A stretch of 52,659 nt of DNA, taken from assembly GCA_964623265.1 (NCBI GenBank), contig CAZUTK010000011.1, forward strand, positions 1-52,659, given 5' to 3'. Made by a program: the position numbers and the translations under genes. Positions 3,048 to 39,669 of the stretch are shown piece by piece. The stretch is from an uncultured bacterium. Lineage in GTDB: Bacteria; Electryoneota; B3-LCP. The notes beneath the pieces were generated by a model. The model worked only from the letters and a program-made list of their open reading frames with translations. It did no database searches and had not been told where the DNA came from. The first letter of the stretch is position 1. Each line of letters starts with the position of its first letter.

Positions 3048-4334
3048 ATGAAGAAACTCAATCTATTATTTCTGCTGTTCGCGATCATCGCGATCACTTC
3101 CTGTGACCGAAAAGCTACCGAGCCGGAATTGCAGTTGACGAATGCGCCGCCGCAGATCACTCAGTTCACAGCGGAAACCACATTTGTGGATCCCGGCCTG
3201 GGCGTAATACTGACCTGCCGAGCGGAAGACCCGGATGGGGACAAACTGGAATACTTCTGGTCTTGTACGAACGGAACCGGGGATATCCTTAATGAAAGCA
3301 TCAACGACAGCACAACTCAGGCAACCGCACTGTTCAAAGCCGGACTTCTGTCGGGACTCAGCATCATAACCATAAAGGTTTCTGATTGTGCTCTGGCTTC
3401 TTATGACAGTCTGACGCTCGTCATCAAACTACCTCCGCCGCAGGAATTGACAGCTGAAGTCGTATCGAATTCGCAGGTTCGCCTCTGGTGGAACTACGCT
3501 TCCGGAGCAGCAGATGGATTTATTGTAGAGAGAAGCTCCGGTCCCGAGGAACCATTCACTGTCATACACGATATCCCCGGCGATTCCATGGAATGTCTCG
3601 ACGATAACTTGACCAGTTTCCAAACTTATTATTATCGCGTTGCCGCGTACAATGAGAACGGCTCCTCTGAATATTCAACTGTGGTATCAGTTTATCTCGC
3701 ATTGATGCCCACCTCCGGATTGGTTGCCTGGTATAAGCTGAATGGAGATGCTTTCGACGGCAGCGGTCAAGGGCGCAATGGGCAAGTGCTGGGCGCCACG
3801 CCAATCGCCGACCGCTTCGGCCGCAGCGGACAGGCCTTGTTTTTCAACGGAGTCGGCGCCTATGTGGACCTGCCAAGCGATTTGCTGCAATCATCCGAAA
3901 TCACCGTAGCAGTATGGATCAATTGGATTGACAACACGCTTGCGAATCAACCGATTCTGCACGCTGTTGGTTCGGATGGGGCTTATCTGTCGCTGACACC
4001 CAAGGCATCGCCGCATTTCCAGATCACCTTAAGCGACGGCACTTATGCCGAATCTGTGAAGGCGCTGCCGCCGCTCAGCACGAACCAATGGACGTTCATT
4101 GCCTTCACGCAGCAAAACGGTTCTTTGACCCTTTATAAAAACGGTGCACCGATAAAAACTGATCCCATCACATTAACTCCGAACCAGGTGACTGGTCAAA
4201 ACACCTATCTGGGCGGATCCCCCGCATCGGCGATTTATCTGACCGGTGCTCTGGATGATGTGAGGATCTATAGTCGCTCTTTAGATGCGGAGGAGATCAC
4301 ACAGCTTTATCGGGAGGGGGGATGGGGATATTAA
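3048..4334 (+). CDS. Surface lipoprotein with a PKD/FN3-like domain and a C-terminal LamG/concanavalin-A-like lectin domain. It follows the receptor with a 1-nt gap.
   Basis: Lipobox LFAIIAITSC; FN3-like segment with WNYASGAADGFIVERSSG..YYYRVAAYNENGSS; LamG-like YLGGSP..LTGALDDVRIYSRSL. Confidence 0.7.
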   Translation: MKKLNLLFLLFAIIAITSCDRKATEPELQLTNAPPQITQFTAETTFVDPGLGVILTCRAEDPDGDKLEYFWSCTNGTGDILNESINDSTTQATALFKAGLLSGLSIITIKVSDCALASYDSLTLVIKLPPPQELTAEVVSNSQVRLWWNYASGAADGFIVERSSGPEEPFTVIHDIPGDSMECLDDNLTSFQTYYYRVAAYNENGSSEYSTVVSVYLALMPTSGLVAWYKLNGDAFDGSGQGRNGQVLGATPIADRFGRSGQALFFNGVGAYVDLPSDLLQSSEITVAVWINWIDNTLANQPILHAVGSDGAYLSLTPKASPHFQITLSDGTYAESVKALPPLSTNQWTFIAFTQQNGSLTLYKNGAPIKTDPITLTPNQVTGQNTYLGGSPASAIYLTGALDDVRIYSRSLDAEEITQLYREGGWGY

Positions 4335-23803: not shown

Positions 23804-24154
23804 TCAAAGCGGTGTCCCGCCTCGGCCGGTTTCCGACGACGTGATTTTCAACCGCCATAACTCTGCGTGAATTTTCGCCTTCCACGACAGTTCTTCCGCT
23901 TTATCTCGATACAACTTCGCAAGATTCGAATCCCCCAGGGAATGATAGACACTCGCCAACTGTCTGTATGGGAGCGGGAAATCCGGCACGAGAGCGATGG
24001 CTTCGTGCAGGCGTGCAATCGCCTCCTGCGGAATGCCGGCTTCTTGGTAGGCTTCACCCAGACGGCTTAACGACCAGGCATCCGATGGGTTCTCAAGGAT
24101 AGTTTTTCTTAAAGACGCGATGGCGTTATTCGGTTCTGTATTTTTCAAAGACAT
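23804..24154 (-). CDS. Small TPR-repeat protein (116 aa).
   Basis: Two or three TPR-like helical hairpins (..AWSLSRLGEAYQEAGIPQEAIARLHEAIALVPDFPLPYRQLASVYHSLGD..). Confidence 0.55.
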   Translation of the reverse strand: MSLKNTEPNNAIASLRKTILENPSDAWSLSRLGEAYQEAGIPQEAIARLHEAIALVPDFPLPYRQLASVYHSLGDSNLAKLYRDKAEELSWKAKIHAELWRLKITSSETGRGGTPL

Positions 24155-24182: not shown

Positions 24183-25031
24183 TCATTCGATCACCAACAT
24201 ACTGCGCATTTCCAGCTCATCCCTTTCGAAGGAAGAGATCCATTGCAGGGTTTCCACTTCCGCAAAAAACTCTTTTAGATCTCGGCGCCCTGCGTGAAAC
24301 TGGTTGATAATATAGGCGAATAGATCGGCGGTTTGCAGCCCGGGCGAGTGCGACGCCGGCGCGAAACAAGGAGTCGCGAGGATTCCCTGAAATCCGGAGC
24401 CGTAGGGCGTATTGAAAAAAAAATTCAACATTCCGGCGCTGCGCGTCCGGCCCCGGCCTGCTTCTTCGGATTTGAAAATCAGCTGCGCCTTGGTCCCAGG
24501 GTGATTCTCGAGCATAAAGGAATTGACCCGTTCGATCAAGTGCGCCAGCAGCAGGGGGCAGCTTTCTTCATCAAACCGATCCTCCGCCGTAAGCGCGCTG
24601 CGATGCATGCGGTCTGCGAATTCGGAAAAATCAGGCTGCTGGGAATCGGCGGCGGCGATTTTTGTAGAGGAAAACACGGTTATCTTCAACCACCGGCAGA
24701 GGCTGAACCATTCGCGCACGAACTCCAACGTTCGATAGCTGTCCATCTTCCGTCTGTTCAACAACTTTTTTCCGCGCAGCGGAAACTCGCCGATACCTTC
24801 GCGCTTGAAGAATCTGCCTTTAAGCCGCAGCAGTCTGCGACAGTAATCGTCGTGCGTTTCTTCCGGGACCGCGGCGCCGGCGATCGTGACGCAAGATGCG
24901 TTTTTGTCCAGGTGTGATTGTCGGCTTTCGTCCAAGAATACCAGCACTTTCCGTCCTCTTCTTGCTCTCAAATGCTCCCTGCTCCGTGCGTCGCATCCCA
25001 TTCGGCATCCGCCGGTTCTGCTCTGGTCCAT
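24183..25031 (-). CDS. DUF3800-family protein.
   Basis: N-terminal VLVFLDESRQ (the family's (I/V)Y(I/L)DESG motif) and a C-terminal GLQTADLFAYII (QxADLxA) motif. Confidence 0.55.
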   Translation of the reverse strand: MDQSRTGGCRMGCDARSREHLRARRGRKVLVFLDESRQSHLDKNASCVTIAGAAVPEETHDDYCRRLLRLKGRFFKREGIGEFPLRGKKLLNRRKMDSYRTLEFVREWFSLCRWLKITVFSSTKIAAADSQQPDFSEFADRMHRSALTAEDRFDEESCPLLLAHLIERVNSFMLENHPGTKAQLIFKSEEAGRGRTRSAGMLNFFFNTPYGSGFQGILATPCFAPASHSPGLQTADLFAYIINQFHAGRRDLKEFFAEVETLQWISSFERDELEMRSMLVIE

Positions 25032-25144
25032 CCTGAGTTAAAGCCTTACGGCTTTCTTCAGATCCGTCCCATCGAAGAAGAGATTGATCCGTAGAAGCGA
25101 ATCTTACCGGATATTCATCGCTTTTCCGGTCATTAAACAGGGGA

Positions 25145-25173
25145 CAACAAAAAATCCGGCGGGCGCCGGATTT
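25145..25173 (-). terminator. Rho-independent terminator on the minus strand ending the CHAT / sigma / anti-sigma transcription unit.
   Basis: 9-bp stem aaatccggc / gccggattt with loop gggc. On the minus strand it is followed by a T-run (the complement of the aaaaa upstream on the + strand). Confidence 0.6.
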
Positions 25174-25201
25174 CGTGCAATGCCGAATCAACGGATCGTG
25201 T

Positions 25202-26041
25202 TCACTCGATCCGCTTCAGCATCTCGGCGGCTTGCGCGGAATGCCCGCAGTTTTGCTCCACCAGCCATCTGAGCAGCGGGATCGCCCGATCCGGATCCGA
25301 TTTCAGCAGATACGCCTGCGCCAGATACCAGCGAGTTTTTTCCCGGAAAGTAAATTGGGTCAAACTATCCGCTGCGGTCAGCGCTTGAATCGCTGGATCC
25401 GCCTGCCGGTCGAGAAAATAACACACTCCTAAAAAAAGTCGGTAGATGCCGCTTTCCGGATCTGAATCTACAGCGTCTTTTAGAAACTTCACCGCGCTGC
25501 GGTAATCCCCCTTTTGGTACAACCGCATCCCCTCCTGAAACTGCGTCTCCGCCGCGTCGTCGGATTCGCCGCGGACGACGGACGCTTTGTAGGGGATCGG
25601 TTCGAACTGCAGCAACGATAAGTAGGGAGATGAAGATTCGGGCGAAGGTCGGAAAATGAACAGGAACAGCGCAGCCAGTACCACAGCACCTGCCGGCAGG
25701 AGGAATGCCAACTTGGGCTTGGACATCAAACGACGCAAGGAACGGACCCACAAGGTCCTGTCCTTGGATTTCGAACCGGTCGCTGCCGACAGTGATTGCA
25801 GGTAAAGGGCTTTCTGCGATTCGAAGGTCAGCCCTTCCCGTCGCAGGTTCTCGCGGATTTCAGCGCGCTTCTCCAGCAGAGCCGCCATCCAGGATACCTC
25901 ATCAGACAGTTCCCGGAAGCAGAAGTCGCAATCCAAGAGATGCTCTTCGAATCGTTCGCGGTCCGCATCGTTCAACTGCCCCAATTCGTACTGGATCCGT
26001 AGAGCGCCGGCTTTTTCATCTGTACAATTTTCCATACGCAC
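25202..26041 (-). CDS. ZAS-type anti-sigma factor with one TM helix and a periplasmic TPR-like domain.
   Basis: HLLDCDFC (H-x3-C-x2-C zinc-binding anti-sigma motif); TM segment LAFLLPAGAVVLAALFLFIF; C-terminal TPR-like repeats. It lies 7 nt downstream of the ECF sigma gene. Confidence 0.7.
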   Translation of the reverse strand: MRMENCTDEKAGALRIQYELGQLNDADRERFEEHLLDCDFCFRELSDEVSWMAALLEKRAEIRENLRREGLTFESQKALYLQSLSAATGSKSKDRTLWVRSLRRLMSKPKLAFLLPAGAVVLAALFLFIFRPSPESSSPYLSLLQFEPIPYKASVVRGESDDAAETQFQEGMRLYQKGDYRSAVKFLKDAVDSDPESGIYRLFLGVCYFLDRQADPAIQALTAADSLTQFTFREKTRWYLAQAYLLKSDPDRAIPLLRWLVEQNCGHSAQAAEMLKRIE

Positions 26042-26048
26042 CCTCAGG

Positions 26049-26645
26049 TCAGATGCTTTTTAAAAGCAACTCGCGAAGCTTTCTGCGACAGTCGAAGACG
26101 CGCTTGTCGAACGTGCCTCGTTGCAGGTTCGGTTCCAAGGTCCGAAAGATTTCCCATAATTCCTGAACCGTTTTCTCCTCCAGAATCCCCAAGAAAAACG
26201 TCCTGCAGAATAATGACATCCCCCGAATCGTCCGGCTAATGTGTTGAACCAGGTCTCTCGATTCGAGGCTTGCCGCAAAAGAGGCGCCCCATTCTGAGAT
26301 CACAGATTCTTGAACTCCGCGAGTCACTTCGGCAGACGGCGCTTCTGCAGGGATCTCCGTTCTTCGTTCCCTGCGCCGCAGCGCATCACCGATTTTGTTG
26401 CGAAGGATTCCATAAGCGAAATAGTGAGGGTTGGATTCTATTTCTGACAGCTTTTCGATAAACACCACCAGGGTGTTCTGGAGCAGATCATCCAGATCCG
26501 CGGGCGCCCATCCTCGTAATCTACATTGGAGAACCAGGCGCAATCTTACCGCGATCTCTCGACAGAGTTGATCCTTCGCCGCCGCATCACCTGAGCGAGA
26601 CTGCGCAAGCAGATCATTCCAATCTTTAGCTTCACCGTGAGGCAC
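26049..26645 (-). CDS. ECF (sigma-70 family, group IV) RNA polymerase sigma factor.
   Basis: Region 2 (..LLQNTLVVFIEKLSEIE..YFAYGILRNKIGDALRRR) and region 4 HTH near the C-terminus; 198 aa. Confidence 0.8.
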   Translation of the reverse strand: MPHGEAKDWNDLLAQSRSGDAAAKDQLCREIAVRLRLVLQCRLRGWAPADLDDLLQNTLVVFIEKLSEIESNPHYFAYGILRNKIGDALRRRERRTEIPAEAPSAEVTRGVQESVISEWGASFAASLESRDLVQHISRTIRGMSLFCRTFFLGILEEKTVQELWEIFRTLEPNLQRGTFDKRVFDCRRKLRELLLKSI

Positions 26646-26679
26646 GTATTGCTCGCTTCTATTACAGTGACCGTCACTT

Positions 26680-29127
26680 TCAATTCAGGGGACTTTCGTC
26701 CAAACCGCTGATCAGCACAAAGGGAGCCCAGGAACGCAATCCGATCTGCGAGCGACGACAATCCATCTGGGCGCGGCGCAGGGATTCCGCCGGCGGATAT
26801 TGACGCAAATAGCCGTAAAATTTCGTCATCAAATCCGCCGACGCCGCATCGTCCACCCCCCAGAGCGAAACCAGCACCGAGGCGGCTCCCGCCGCCAGAA
26901 AAGCGCGGGATATTCCGACCACTTCATCGCCGTTCGTCCGCCTTCCCATCCCGGTCCTGCAGGCGGAGAGCACGACCAAATCAGCTTTGATGGGTAGTTG
27001 GAAGATCTCATAAACTGATACATCTCCGTCCTGCTCTTGATCCGGCGCCAACAGAAGTTTGGAGAACAACGGATAGGCGGCGTTCAGGTCGCTGTGACAG
27101 GCGAGGTGGATCACATCGAAATCAGCCGCCAGCTGCAACAAGCGAGTCTCCGTCGCAGCTTTTCGCGTGAAGATTTTACTGACGGAGAAGTTTTTCGCGA
27201 TGGACTTCACTTCCCGTTCGGCGAAAGGCAGCGGCGGAAAATCCACATCGGCGATGCTCGGATTACCGAACGCCAGCAGGCTGTTGCGGCGAGGCGCGTC
27301 CTTACGGCGGAGGAACGTCAATGTCGAAGCCGAAGGTAAGACCGAAAAACCCCATCGGTCGGATACAAAATTCCCGCTCGGATCCCGCAGCGCGGAAAAC
27401 GGCACATAGTGCAAAATCCCATGCGGAATGAGGATGAGGCGACCGCCGCTGGGAAGATCGGCGCAAGGCGCAAGCAGGAGGTTGTAAAGAGCCTCGGGTA
27501 GGAATCGCGAATCCCCCAGGTACTGGATCTCGTCCCGCAGTCCGGTGACCAAATTCTTCAAGCTGTCACCGCCCACAGGTACTCGATAAAATCTTACATC
27601 ACGTTTCGTCACGTACCAGATCAGAGTTCTATCGCGGGCGATATAATACTCCAACAGGGCGGCATCCGGCGTCAACATTCTCTGAATTTCTTTCAACGTC
27701 AACGCTTCTACTCTGCCGGGGGAAGTCACCTCCGGCTCTTCGGATTTATCCTCGATTTCGTTGCTTTCACTCATAACAGAGCTTAAAATTGAGATGTTTT
27801 CACCGCCGGCCGCCAGCAAGTCCAAGAAAGAACGAGCCTTGCTGCGTTCGACATAATGAAACGCCGTCTCGCTGTCTCCCAGCGCGACGAGAGCCGTGAT
27901 GACCGCTTCATACAGATCCGCGCCGCTTGCGGCGAAGCTGGTCTTCTGCGCTTCGACTTGCAAGCGCGAACGCATATTTTCCAGAAGGTCCACAGCTTTC
28001 TTGTAATCCGTCACCGCAGATTCCAGCCGTCCCTGCGATAAATGGTAATTTCCCAGCGCCGCCTGCACCAGAAGAAGGTTTACTGAAATGCTATCTTCAG
28101 CAGCAAGCTTCAACGCACGTTGCAAATAGGTTTCGGCTTCTTTATACCTTCTCTGCGCGGCGAACAACGTTCCGAGGTCGGCGAGAGTCACGCATTCTCC
28201 GCTGCGATCCCCTAATGCCTGGCAGATGTCGAGATCCTGCTGATAATAATTCCGAGCCTCGTCGAAATCCCCCATTTTGAATGCGACATACCCGAGGTTG
28301 CTCAGTGCGATGCCTTCACCTTTGCGATCGCCTGCTGCTCGGCGGATCGTGAGACTCTGCCGATGGCGTTCAAGAGCATCCTCGAAACGACCCTGTGCCG
28401 CCAGAATCCCGCCGATGTTATCGAGCGTGGCGGCTTCGCCTTCGCGGTCTTCCAGATCCCGACTGATCTGCAAGCTCTCTTCGTAATAGGTCAGAGCTTT
28501 CTCATCATCGTACAGGAGATCGTACACCACGCCGATATTGTGCAGGGTGACGGCAACGCCCTTTTGATTGCCCAGTTCACGCTTCAGCTCCAGGCTGCGG
28601 CGGTGATACTCCAGTGCTCGGGTGTAATCCCCCAGAGATTTATAAGCCACACCCATATTGCCTAAGACTCGGCCGGCGCCGTCGCGATCCTCCAATTCCG
28701 TGAAGATCTTCAGACTTTGATTGTAACATTCGAGCGCCTTGAAATGGGACGACTGATCATCATACACCATGCCGATATTATTCAACGTATTCGCTTCCCC
28801 CCGGCGATCGCCCAATTTTCTGCGGATCTGCAGGCTCTGTTCAAAATACTGCACCGCTTCCGGGAAGCGAGAGAGGTTGCGATAGGCGACGCCGATATTA
28901 TTCAGGTTCTGCGCTTCGAGCAGCGGATCCCCGTGAGCCCGGGCGATCTCCAGGCTGCGCTGGTAATGCTGAATCGCCAGCGGGTACTGGGAAAGATCGT
29001 CGTAAATCCATCCGAGGCTCTTCAGCGTCTGCGCGATGCGCGGCGGATCATCCAGTTGTTCAAACTCCCGCAGAGCTTCCTGCCAGCTGTTCAGAGCTTC
29101 GGCGTAACGTTCCAGTTCGTATTGCAC
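26680..29127 (-). CDS. TPR-repeat CHAT-domain caspase-like protease. The annotated GTG start at 29127 lies inside a TPR repeat. The true N-terminus with its signal peptide is probably the ORF starting at 29420 in another frame, joined by a frameshift near 29315..29335.
   Basis: At least 12 TPR units in the N-terminal 400 aa. The C-terminal CHAT domain has the His/Cys dyad context ..VIHLACHSD.. and ..LVVLSACRTG... The upstream frame encodes MGSSQKVLRRSGAILMLVAAVSFIVWLAQQ (a classic signal peptide). Confidence 0.8.
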   Translation of the reverse strand: MQYELERYAEALNSWQEALREFEQLDDPPRIAQTLKSLGWIYDDLSQYPLAIQHYQRSLEIARAHGDPLLEAQNLNNIGVAYRNLSRFPEAVQYFEQSLQIRRKLGDRRGEANTLNNIGMVYDDQSSHFKALECYNQSLKIFTELEDRDGAGRVLGNMGVAYKSLGDYTRALEYHRRSLELKRELGNQKGVAVTLHNIGVVYDLLYDDEKALTYYEESLQISRDLEDREGEAATLDNIGGILAAQGRFEDALERHRQSLTIRRAAGDRKGEGIALSNLGYVAFKMGDFDEARNYYQQDLDICQALGDRSGECVTLADLGTLFAAQRRYKEAETYLQRALKLAAEDSISVNLLLVQAALGNYHLSQGRLESAVTDYKKAVDLLENMRSRLQVEAQKTSFAASGADLYEAVITALVALGDSETAFHYVERSKARSFLDLLAAGGENISILSSVMSESNEIEDKSEEPEVTSPGRVEALTLKEIQRMLTPDAALLEYYIARDRTLIWYVTKRDVRFYRVPVGGDSLKNLVTGLRDEIQYLGDSRFLPEALYNLLLAPCADLPSGGRLILIPHGILHYVPFSALRDPSGNFVSDRWGFSVLPSASTLTFLRRKDAPRRNSLLAFGNPSIADVDFPPLPFAEREVKSIAKNFSVSKIFTRKAATETRLLQLAADFDVIHLACHSDLNAAYPLFSKLLLAPDQEQDGDVSVYEIFQLPIKADLVVLSACRTGMGRRTNGDEVVGISRAFLAAGAASVLVSLWGVDDAASADLMTKFYGYLRQYPPAESLRRAQMDCRRSQIGLRSWAPFVLISGLDESPLN

Positions 29128-29688
29128 CGCGCCGATTTTATACCAGGCTCGAGCTTCCCCAGCCTTATCGCCGGAAAGGCGGTATTCACCGCGACATTTC
29201 TGATACTCCGCCAGCGCGGATTCGAGATCACCGGCATCCCGCAGGGAATCCGCGCGTACAAAGGAGCTATCCGGTCTTCCTGCGATCCTTTTTGCTGCGC
29301 CAGCCAGACAATAAAGGAGACAGCTGCGACCAGCATCAAAATCGCGCCGGATCTGCGCAGAACTTTTTGTGAGGAACCCATTCTAGCACTGTTTGATTTC
29401 ACAGCGGCAAGATTTCGCAATCGCCCAACAACGCAATGCGGAAGGGAAAGCCATTCCCTGCCGGGTCAGTCTTGAAGACAGCGGCAATGATTCGAGACGG
29501 CGGTTTTTTCCTGCGGATTTATACCTTCCGACAACATTTCCTCCCGCATTGGCTGAATTCTGTACAAAAACAGCCTTTTCGATTCCTTTCTGTCATCCTC
29601 GACGACGGACGAAAGCAGCATTTTACAACTAAGCGTCTCGGCTTTCCGTATTATAGAGTAACATCTCACGTTAATAGAGAAAAAGACC

Positions 29689-39269: not shown

Positions 39270-39516
39270 TCAGTTTGCTCGTCATCAGCAACAGATCGGA
39301 TCGGCTGTTCAAGAAAACTGCGGTCTGCTTTCTCTTCGGGCTTATGATGGGATGGCCGCTTGCCACGGCTTGAGGAAGATGATCGGTGGGAAAATCCATT
39401 GCCTGCAAGCGCGGCACCGGATTTTCGATGATCTGCAGCATCATCAGCAGTCTCCTTTCCAAATGGGGAGGTCGCGTCGTTTCCAACTGCGGCCCTCGGA
39501 GGCGGGAGTAAGTCAC

Positions 39517-39669
39517 TCCCCCTCGCCGCCCGAACCGCCGTGGCGCATTTCGAACGCTTTAGGCGATGGGGGTCGGAGTCTTTCGCCATACTGATCCGGT
39601 TACGGATCAGCCATAATTGTCATTTATTGAATTCTACTTCGGTATTTCCGCCGAAGTTCGCCTCCGGTT
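39517..39669 (-). promoter_or_regulatory. Structured 5' leader of the moa operon, part of a 400-nt gap between torD and moaA. It is a candidate Moco riboswitch or attenuator.
   Basis: Several stable hairpins, including a perfect ctgatccg/cggatcag stem at 39591..39610 and gggagt/actccc. An anti-SD-like CCUCCGAGG stretch lies upstream of GGAAAGGAG-N7-AUG of an 86-codon uORF that overlaps the moaA start. Confidence 0.3.

Follow-up and report, generated by a model that had tools for sequence, protein, structure and literature searches.

Introduction

In the DegS/RseA/RseP–sigmaE pathway a single-pass anti-sigma factor is cut in the periplasm near the membrane (site 1), and intramembrane proteolysis follows. 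In Myxococcus xanthus DdvS, a sigma factor of the extracytoplasmic function (ECF) type, is paired with DdvA, a transmembrane anti-sigma factor of the zinc-binding (ZAS) type whose periplasmic part consists of tetratricopeptide repeats (TPR) and a CHAT domain (PMC6061681, PMC11506125), and for DdvA a CHAT-mediated clipping before the action of RseP has been proposed (PMC11506125). A third case is Craspase of the type III-E CRISPR module, which cleaves Csx30, a protein that binds RpoE (PMC10028731). The present analysis concerns a 52.6-kb stretch of DNA from an uncultured bacterium (contig CAZUTK010000011.1), called here the window in its whole length, and in it three adjacent genes for a TPR-CHAT protein, an ECF-type sigma factor and a ZAS anti-sigma factor. 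With a little more confidence than doubt, these genes are read here as a split signalling cassette, in which the CHAT protease gates the release of the sigma factor and sigma-dependent promoters fire both an output gene and a feedback loop.

The cassette is a split variant of the DdvA/DdvS type of system, for which the idea of a CHAT protease gating a sigma factor had already been put forward. The two were compared by description and not by sequence. They have in common a cytoplasmic anti-sigma domain with a CHCC ligand set, one transmembrane helix, a flexible periplasmic linker, a periplasmic TPR-CHAT part with a His/Cys dyad, a partner ECF sigma factor, and a proposed logic that leads from a CHAT cut in the linker through intramembrane proteolysis of the RseP type to the release of sigma. 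They differ in that the TPR-CHAT part of the cassette is a separate exported protein, and the anti-sigma factor carries a small domain of three TPRs only; with its 277-279 residues it is not the single ZAS-transmembrane-TPR-CHAT polypeptide of the DdvA type. A PDB search with the CHAT domain and the anti-sigma N-terminus did not retrieve DdvA. The cassette sigma factor belongs moreover to a small isolated clade and has an internal promoter-like site in its open reading frame (ORF), the output is a single adjacent gene (for a DUF3800 protein here) and not a CBASS/CRISPR island, and the hosts are candidate phyla of the FCB (Fibrobacteres-Chlorobi-Bacteroidetes) type, not Myxococcota. A preliminary description of this DNA had spoken of a largely uncharacterised system; the split form is new, and its logic has already been proposed for the fused DdvA/DdvS (PMC11506125), so that the kind as such is not wholly uncharacterised.

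The type III-E module likewise links a TPR-CHAT protein to an ECF-type sigma factor and a sigma-binding protein, and its protease cleaves that protein. However, the type III-E module is cytoplasmic and RNA-guided, whereas the cassette has an exported protease and lacks cas genes within 52 kb, and the sigma-binding protein is Csx30 in the former and a ZAS membrane protein in the latter. Scanning of the larger ORFs of the window gave no cas or CBASS domains. Kinship with type III-E was rejected on this absence and on the family scores: NF041237, the model of Csx29, gave 45.2 bits (cut-off 300), and NF041236, that of the III-E RpoE, gave 18.9 (cut-off 100). The echo of type III-E heard in the preliminary description is real as regards the catalytic dyad, which aligns, and does not extend to family membership; cas genes are missing nearby, as that description had it. 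With DegS/RseA/RseP the cassette shares the general logic and a similar promoter architecture (GGAAC-like -35 block, N16, TCAA-like -10 block). Its site-1 enzyme would be a caspase-fold cysteine protease, whereas DegS is a PDZ serine protease; unlike RseA, the anti-sigma factor is of the ZAS type, and the sigma gene showed no positive autoregulatory promoter ahead of it.

Linkage of the Three Genes

Loci (designated L001, L002 and so on) were collected with an alignment of the sigma factor, 13 from species-representative genomes and 23 from metagenomes of the Joint Genome Institute (JGI), and four window proteins were mapped onto every locus to score the gene neighbourhoods. Some 35 different sigma loci were obtained, and in these the sigma gene adjoins that of the anti-sigma factor wherever that side of the contig is present. 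The position of the CHAT gene was judged on the 26 loci having at least 1 kb of upstream sequence. In 23 of these the sigma/anti-sigma pair has as its direct neighbour a TPR-CHAT gene that encodes a signal peptide and keeps the dyad, 21 having been counted by a script and two added by inspection (L029, with a 422-nt gap, and L048, with a split ORF). The order is usually CHAT-sigma-anti-sigma, and sigma-anti-sigma-CHAT in L018, L035 and L039. Two CHAT subtypes are linked to the sigma factor, one like that of the window and another with a 20-residue insert after the catalytic His and about 27% identity across the CHAT domain. The triad recurs in dozens of unrelated contigs with otherwise different neighbourhoods, and four of five CHAT homologs (39-76% identity) show the CHAT/sigma/TPR-anti-sigma order in unrelated surroundings; the fifth, from a Zixibacteria metagenome-assembled genome (MAG), lies beside a CHASE2 cyclase instead. 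The three genes form a conserved unit that recurs far more than chance would allow, and their linkage is not incidental; the co-occurrence suspected from this one genome extends well beyond it, in two gene orders and with both CHAT subtypes.

In the Zixibacteria locus L007 (L007:482-8445) two TPR-CHAT genes flank a 226-aa protein and a CHASE2-guanylate cyclase, which indicates that close CHAT homologs also plug into another signalling partner. The MAG labels of the relatives are candidate division LCP-89, Zixibacteria and Gemmatimonadota, with "Alphaproteobacteria" coming from one binning project. Several proteins encoded in the window are sorted by the type IX secretion system (T9SS), which fits an organism of the FCB type.

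The TPR-CHAT Protease

All genes of the cassette lie on the minus strand, as do the terminator and the motifs described with them. The TPR-CHAT body (26680..29270) consists of about ten TPRs followed by a CHAT caspase-fold domain. The search with the Pfam CHAT model PF12770, advised at the outset, gave 222.8 bits (E=8e-66) with 283 of the 289 profile positions covered, and TPR_12 (E=4e-83) was accompanied by many further TPR matches in Pfam; for this protein PADLOC returned nothing but TPR-type matches. The dyad is found as the His of ..HLACH.. and the Cys of ..LSACRTG... None of the 12 sigma-linked CHATs examined departs from the His of ..ACH.. or the Cys of ..C(R/Q/E)T.., and both residues line up with the catalytic His/Cys of Csx29, the type III-E Craspase, so that the conservation of the proposed catalytic residues is borne out.

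The orthologs linked to the sigma factor all have an N-terminal Sec-type signal peptide, ending for example in ..SINA/QP, ..TNA/GQ or ..VHS/QV, which makes the family an extracytoplasmic one. In the window, however, the gene is not one ORF, and the export signal and the TPR-CHAT body stand in different frames. From TTG 29420 or ATG 29381 the 5' frame reads MGSSQKVLRRSGAILMLVAAVSFIVWLAQQK..., in which a basic n-region leads into a hydrophobic core of 16 residues (hydrophobic stretch at residues 7-30); it stops at 29091. The 5' fragment 29271..29381 carries MGSSQKVLRRSGAILMLVAAVSFIVWLAQQKGSQEDR, an export signal or signal anchor that has its counterpart at the N-terminus of the intact ortholog P0002; the remainder of the gene is in another frame. 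The TPR-CHAT frame is open up to 29382, and its first ATG, GTG or TTG is the GTG at 29127. DNA alignment with the ortholog L001 placed the frameshift site at 29262..29276, where 10 nt are missing after GACCGGAT, between 29269 and 29268; the gap separates the signal/anchor from the first TPR, and an A5 run lies directly upstream. The signal-peptide TPR-CHAT gene reaching to 29420 in the preliminary description thus holds for the domain and the dyad motifs and not for a single ORF, and an extracytoplasmic location, well founded for the orthologs, is at odds in the window with an export signal out of frame.

It is quite possible, if somewhat short of probable, that the module is decaying in the window, the CHAT gene being a recent pseudogene or encoding a signal-less cytoplasmic protein, and that the caspase step is inoperative here. 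Besides the 10-nt deletion and the missing start codon ahead of 29127, the public gene call is a shortened product of 815 aa (P0001), and the sister locus L048 (JGI Ga0495054_000367; sigma 80% identical) has a CHAT gene with TAC changed to TAA at codon 628 (..RDEIQ*LGDS..; L048:4060-4200), ahead of the protease domain. The two lesions are independent, so that the protease gene is damaged in two of the three genomes of the window clade, whereas none of the three has a damaged sigma, anti-sigma or DUF3800 gene. On the other side, the window has a single lesion across 2.7 kb, and CHAT, with a dN/dS of 0.17-0.21, is on a level with the intact genes next to it (0.13-0.20), so that any inactivation is recent or the lesions are consensus artefacts. 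As the window sequence probably represents a metagenome consensus, assembly or a mixture of strains could have produced the indel, and the A5 run could permit slippage. The third relative (L001/L002) is intact on four contigs: its product P0002, of 907 aa and 76% identical, is continuous through the frameshift point. The switch may be disabled in this genome, or the assembly may be wrong.

The Sigma Factor

As the preliminary description had it, an ECF sigma gene follows 34 nt downstream of the CHAT ORF. It encodes 198 aa (26049..26645) and is a divergent member of its type. Sigma70_r2 was matched at 27.5 bits (Pfam cut-off 24), and no Pfam model of region 4 was matched; TIGR02937 covered residues 42-192 with 27.4 bits, under its cut-off of 42.9. 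The AlphaFold2 model, made with 36 homologs (pLDDT 82.8), has a sigma2 domain at 9-97, a disordered linker at 101-124 and a sigma4 domain at 125-197, the two-domain composition of ECF factors without sigma1.1 or sigma3. In Foldseek the best matches of this model, over its full length, were the ECF sigma factors SigH, AlgU, sigmaE, SigW and CnrH, with sigma2 superposing on region 2 of sigmaE at TM 0.75-0.77 (rmsd 2.3-3.0), and PDB searches with the sequence gave marginal matches. A protein search with the sigma factor found only 40 proteins among 5.8 billion. The profile, run against 1.84 billion representative proteins, matched 62 at E<=1e-30, 145 at E<=1e-10 and 1141 at E<=1e-3, and these few matches mark a clade that is small and far from the mainstream ECF families.

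Two cysteines of the sigma4 domain, C147 (..FCRTFF..) and C186 (..FDCRRKL..), are invariant in 36 of 36 family members. Invariant cysteines in sigma4 are unusual for ECF sigma factors, and the pair could be a redox or metal site.

The Anti-Sigma Factor

Seven nucleotides after the sigma gene begins the gene of the anti-sigma factor (25202..26041, 279 aa), with an alternative ATG at 26035 that gives 277 aa and from which the residues are numbered here. The membrane-bound ZAS protein with a TPR-like periplasmic domain that had been expected at this place was recovered in full: the HxxxCxxC motif reads HLLDCDFC, there is one hydrophobic helix, and the TPRs are C-terminal. C4, H32, C36, C39, P137 and R155 are invariant in 15 homologs and also in the alignment of the loci. 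RslA of Mycobacterium tuberculosis (3HUG) aligns with the protein at HxxxCxxC (E=0.065), and the RsrA model matches with E=0.039. The profile check on the ZAS assignment came out divided, the CHCC motif being invariant and the zf-HC2 score (PF13490) of the window protein, 17.3 bits, falling below the cut-off of 22.2; a precomputed zf-HC2 match exists for eight of the 15 listed homologs. Binding of zinc and of the cognate sigma factor is predicted, and the adjacency to the sigma gene supports this.

Hydropathy gave one transmembrane helix at about residues 106-131, with five Lys/Arg on the inside flank and none outside, a distribution that indicates an N-in, C-out topology. Residues 128-160 are non-helical in the AlphaFold2 model. 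This extracytoplasmic linker carries the motif (N/S)PY(L/F)..L.FE..PY.....R, which reads SSPYLSLLQFEPIPYKASVVR(155) in the window. It is followed at 161-276 by a periplasmic domain of 3 to 3.5 TPRs modelled with pLDDT >90, for which Foldseek returned three-TPR peptide binders such as PcrH/SycD, Hop and CHIP.

In one sub-lineage (L016:8567-10666, and the 735-aa ORFs of L034/L036) the anti-sigma factor is extended beyond the TPRs by Ig-like repeats of the Kre9/KNH type and by a C-terminal sorting domain for T9SS. An adjacent CHAT gene is absent from L016 and L036, and L034 ends at a contig edge.

The Promoter-Like Motif

The transcription unit of CHAT, sigma and anti-sigma is closed by an intrinsic terminator at 25151..25174 (10-bp stem, 4-nt loop, T-run), in agreement with the strong terminator first placed at 25145..25173; equivalent hairpins follow the cassette in L001, L003 and L014. 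Beyond it, at 25082..25108 and about 130 nt upstream of the DUF3800 start, stands the promoter-like motif GGTAAGATTCGCTTCTACGGATCAATC (GGTAAG-N16-CAAT). The strict pattern, ending in CAAT[A/C], has this site as its one match in 52.6 kb, with 0.03 expected. In six aligned anti-sigma–DUF3800 intergenic regions (window, L001, L003, L006, L014 and L019; L048 was left out) GGTAA(G/C)-N16-CAAT alone is common, with constant spacing and often with an A-rich tract upstream, and neither the spacer nor the untranslated region around it is conserved. Of the 28 loci with enough sequence, 19 have a copy of the motif in the 700 nt that follow the cassette, where by our own estimate for a 15-bit pattern on one strand about 0.02 per locus would arise by chance.

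A second copy, GGTAAG-N16-CAAT at 26525..26550, lies within the sigma ORF at codons ~32-41 (A-V-R-L...Q-C). It ends in CAATG and was found by a position weight matrix with a score of 27.2. This internal motif was seen in some 31-33 lineages, metagenome loci included, and the site encodes A-V-(R/T)-L....Q-x-R-L across them. Codon choice at the site is uniform: Val is GTA in 17 of 17 lineages (14% elsewhere in the same genes), Arg is AGA in 13 of 13 (14% elsewhere), and Gln is CAA in all 12 lineages with Gln at that place (36% elsewhere).

Within a genome the variants of the motif agree between the internal and the downstream site. Both carry GGTAAGATT in the window, L001, L048 and clade B, GGTAACGC in L003, L006 and L014, and TGTAAGAA in L009, while L018 has CAAAC in the -10 block at both places and L023 has CAAAT and then CCGT. 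A sigma4 recognition helix with FDKR goes together with a -35 block AAGATT and with R at the internal site, and one with F/Y-RKR goes together with AAC(G/A) and with T; since this correlation follows clade boundaries, it is supportive and not independent evidence. In some genomes the cassette is present as two paralogs that differ in their promoter variant (L014 and L023 in one LCP-89 MAG; L009 and L043 on the same 53.8-kb contig), which suggests insulated parallel channels.

The consensus of Escherichia coli sigmaE promoters is GGAACTT-N16-TCAAA, and the motif resembles these ECF promoters in its architecture of a -35 block, N16 and a -10 block. GGTAA(G/C)-N16-CAAT is likely to be the cognate promoter of this sigma factor. 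That it is a site for another regulator, or that its internal copy is a by-product of a cluster of rare codons, appears improbable to us. In favour of such readings, the sigma gene has no copy of its own upstream, and the internal copy falls within the coding sequence of a conserved helix, where AGA, GTA, TTA and CAA are all rare codons and a translational pause is conceivable; yet both blocks recur with identical spacing and unconserved spacers in the non-coding DNA after the cassette, their lineage-specific variants agree between the two sites, the -35 variant goes with D or R in the sigma4 recognition helix, and the layout resembles that of ECF promoters. An origin of the motif as the remnant of a duplicated piece of the sigma gene was also considered and ruled out, as the two blocks alone are conserved and the spacer and flanks are not.

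An exact TTGACA-N17-TATATT precedes the CHAT gene in L003, L006, L014, L019 and L023; no clear housekeeping promoter was recognised upstream of the CHAT gene of the window. From these promoters and the terminators the cassette looks constitutive and the downstream gene sigma-dependent.

The DUF3800 Protein and Other Proposed Output Genes

The gene behind the downstream motif encodes a DUF3800 protein (24183..24950) of 255 aa, read from GTG 24950; this start was set by comparison with orthologs, the ORF being open to 25031. PF12686 was matched at 42.6 bits (cut-off 21), and the motifs FLDES (N-terminal DE) and LQTAD (C-terminal QxxD) are present. A DUF3800 gene follows the anti-sigma gene in seven lineages (window, L001, L048, L003, L006, L014 and L019). 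DUF3800 has an RNase H-like fold (PMC10910872, PMC7736814), which is taken over from the literature for the window protein. Type VII retrons have it as an accessory protein or domain (PMC7736814), a TPR+DUF3800 protein is linked to Cas12a2 (PMC10910872), and eleven unexplained RNA motifs neighbour DUF3800 (PMC5737381). The cassette has in common with the retron type VII and Cas12a2 loci the DE and QxxD motifs and a small TPR protein alongside. It differs from them in having no reverse transcriptase, Cas12 or known DUF3800 RNA motif, and in that its DUF3800 gene appears under a dedicated ECF sigma factor. An Rfam search upstream of DUF3800 found no known DUF3800 RNA motif at the gathering threshold or at E<=10, and none was found in L011-L013. 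In L006 (L006:10133-10885) and L019, where the gene is split into two ORFs (L019:5672-6451), the catalytic-like motifs are N-E and Q..N variants; not all copies of this output may be active.

The small TPR protein, cytoplasmic and 116 aa long (23804..24154, with Pfam TPR matches), is encoded after DUF3800 in four lineages (window, L001, L048 and L014) and is possibly a partner of it. Its position beside DUF3800 recalls the TPR+DUF3800 proteins linked to Cas12a2.

In other lineages the promoter motif has behind it a conserved block with a small ORF, a conserved lipoprotein, or large beta-helix T9SS proteins. Different genes standing behind the same promoter make the cassette appear as a portable switch with variable cargo; in the window it probably switches on the neighbouring nuclease-like gene. 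In a clade without DUF3800 the nucleotide sequence is conserved over a block of some 100 nt behind the output motif, with a ribosome-binding site and a small ORF MKSSLHK... (L011:5290-5400, L012:11920-12030, L013:9971-10080, L025:5860-5990, L028:2080-2200 and 3600-3720), which could encode a small protein or be a small RNA. After this block L012 has no ORF of more than 113 aa in 4.6 kb, and this ORF-poor stretch showed no CRISPR array or repeats.

Proposed Mechanism

In the reading preferred here the cassette would be made constitutively, and the sigma factor would be held by the anti-sigma factor at the membrane until the TPR arrays read a cue in the periplasm. This would activate the CHAT protease, which would cut the anti-sigma factor in its juxtamembrane linker (site 1), and intramembrane and cytoplasmic proteolysis would then free the sigma factor. 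The freed sigma would transcribe from GGTAA(G/C)-N16-CAAT, one copy driving the insulated downstream gene, here DUF3800, and the internal copy reading into the anti-sigma gene, giving negative feedback and a reset of the system. The CHAT cut, the later proteolysis and the reset are suggested by the synteny, the topology, the conserved linker and the two precedents, DdvA and Craspase. R155 is a plausible P1 residue. Metacaspases cleave after Arg. The same specificity is described for separase (PMC11506125).

Several points weigh against this scheme. Cleavage of the anti-sigma factor by CHAT is inferred, and no site-2 protease was identified in the window. The CHAT gene itself is interrupted in the window and in L048, as described above. 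L016, L017 and L021 have no CHAT gene within reach and keep the linker Arg, which means that CHAT is not obligatory or is encoded elsewhere in those genomes. Neither the sigma gene nor the CHAT gene has a sigma-dependent motif upstream, so that classical positive autoregulation is missing, and a promoter inside an ORF, as predicted here, is unusual. Lastly, the outputs vary by lineage between DUF3800, the small ORF, the lipoprotein and T9SS proteins, and the biological role is accordingly not uniform.

Some of these points also agree with the main rival, a genuine sigma/anti-sigma module in which CHAT is not the site-1 protease and serves as a sensor scaffold or as a processor of other envelope proteins, the sigma factor being freed otherwise, for instance by oxidation of the ZAS zinc site or by a different periplasmic protease. 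We hold this to be rather unlikely. The CHCC ligand set is that of the redox-sensitive RsrA, the three loci without an adjacent CHAT gene keep the anti-sigma architecture, and in the two sister genomes where CHAT is damaged the other genes have stayed whole; the tight adjacency in 23 of 26 loci, on the other hand, is maintained despite changed gene order and CHAT subtype. The secreted T9SS proteins or lipoproteins that are the outputs of several lineages could be processed by a periplasmic protease, which agrees with this alternative. Against it, CHAT is encoded in the sigma/anti-sigma transcription unit and not behind the sigma-dependent promoter. An invariant extended linker with an invariant Arg lies, moreover, where a site-1 cut is expected, and the fused DdvA has the same domains acting in one pathway (PMC11506125).

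It is tempting to speculate that the cassette is a standalone switch for defence or of an abortive-infection-like kind, in which CHAT would sense an extracytoplasmic insult (possibly phage or envelope damage) and cut the anti-sigma factor in trans, DUF3800 would be the only local target of the sigma factor, and the feedback promoter would be built in. This would be analogous to Craspase-Csx30-RpoE and to DdvA/DdvS, minus CRISPR or CBASS; we consider it unlikely. No known anti-phage system was recognised, as PADLOC gave no match to the sigma factor, the anti-sigma factor or DUF3800, and PHROGs gave nothing useful. A defence-island context was ruled out as well, the window having ordinary chromosomal genes throughout.

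Returning to the split CHAT-gated cassette, the separation of protease and substrate on two polypeptides makes the CHAT step testable in trans, with purified parts and with mutants of the Cys and of the linker Arg. To our knowledge, cutting of the anti-sigma factor by CHAT has as yet been demonstrated by no one for the fused DdvA. Since a cognate promoter is predicted, a minimal reporter could be assembled from the sigma and anti-sigma factors, the protease and this promoter. The internal motif, with its fixed synonymous codons and an R/T change that tracks the promoter variant, would exemplify a coding sequence constrained by regulatory DNA. Should DUF3800 be the true output, the cassette would connect sensing outside the cytoplasm with a nuclease family also met in retron and Cas12a2 loci.

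Genomic Surroundings

The genes around the cassette encode a TonB receptor, T9SS cargo, a helicase, and ABC and TolC exporters; TetR, Fur, catalase and molybdenum cofactor biosynthesis are further ordinary genes of the window. Upstream of the molybdenum cofactor genes, near a molybdopterin oxidoreductase, a molybdenum cofactor riboswitch (RF01055, 61 bits) was located at 39436-39590 on the minus strand, likewise an ordinary feature.

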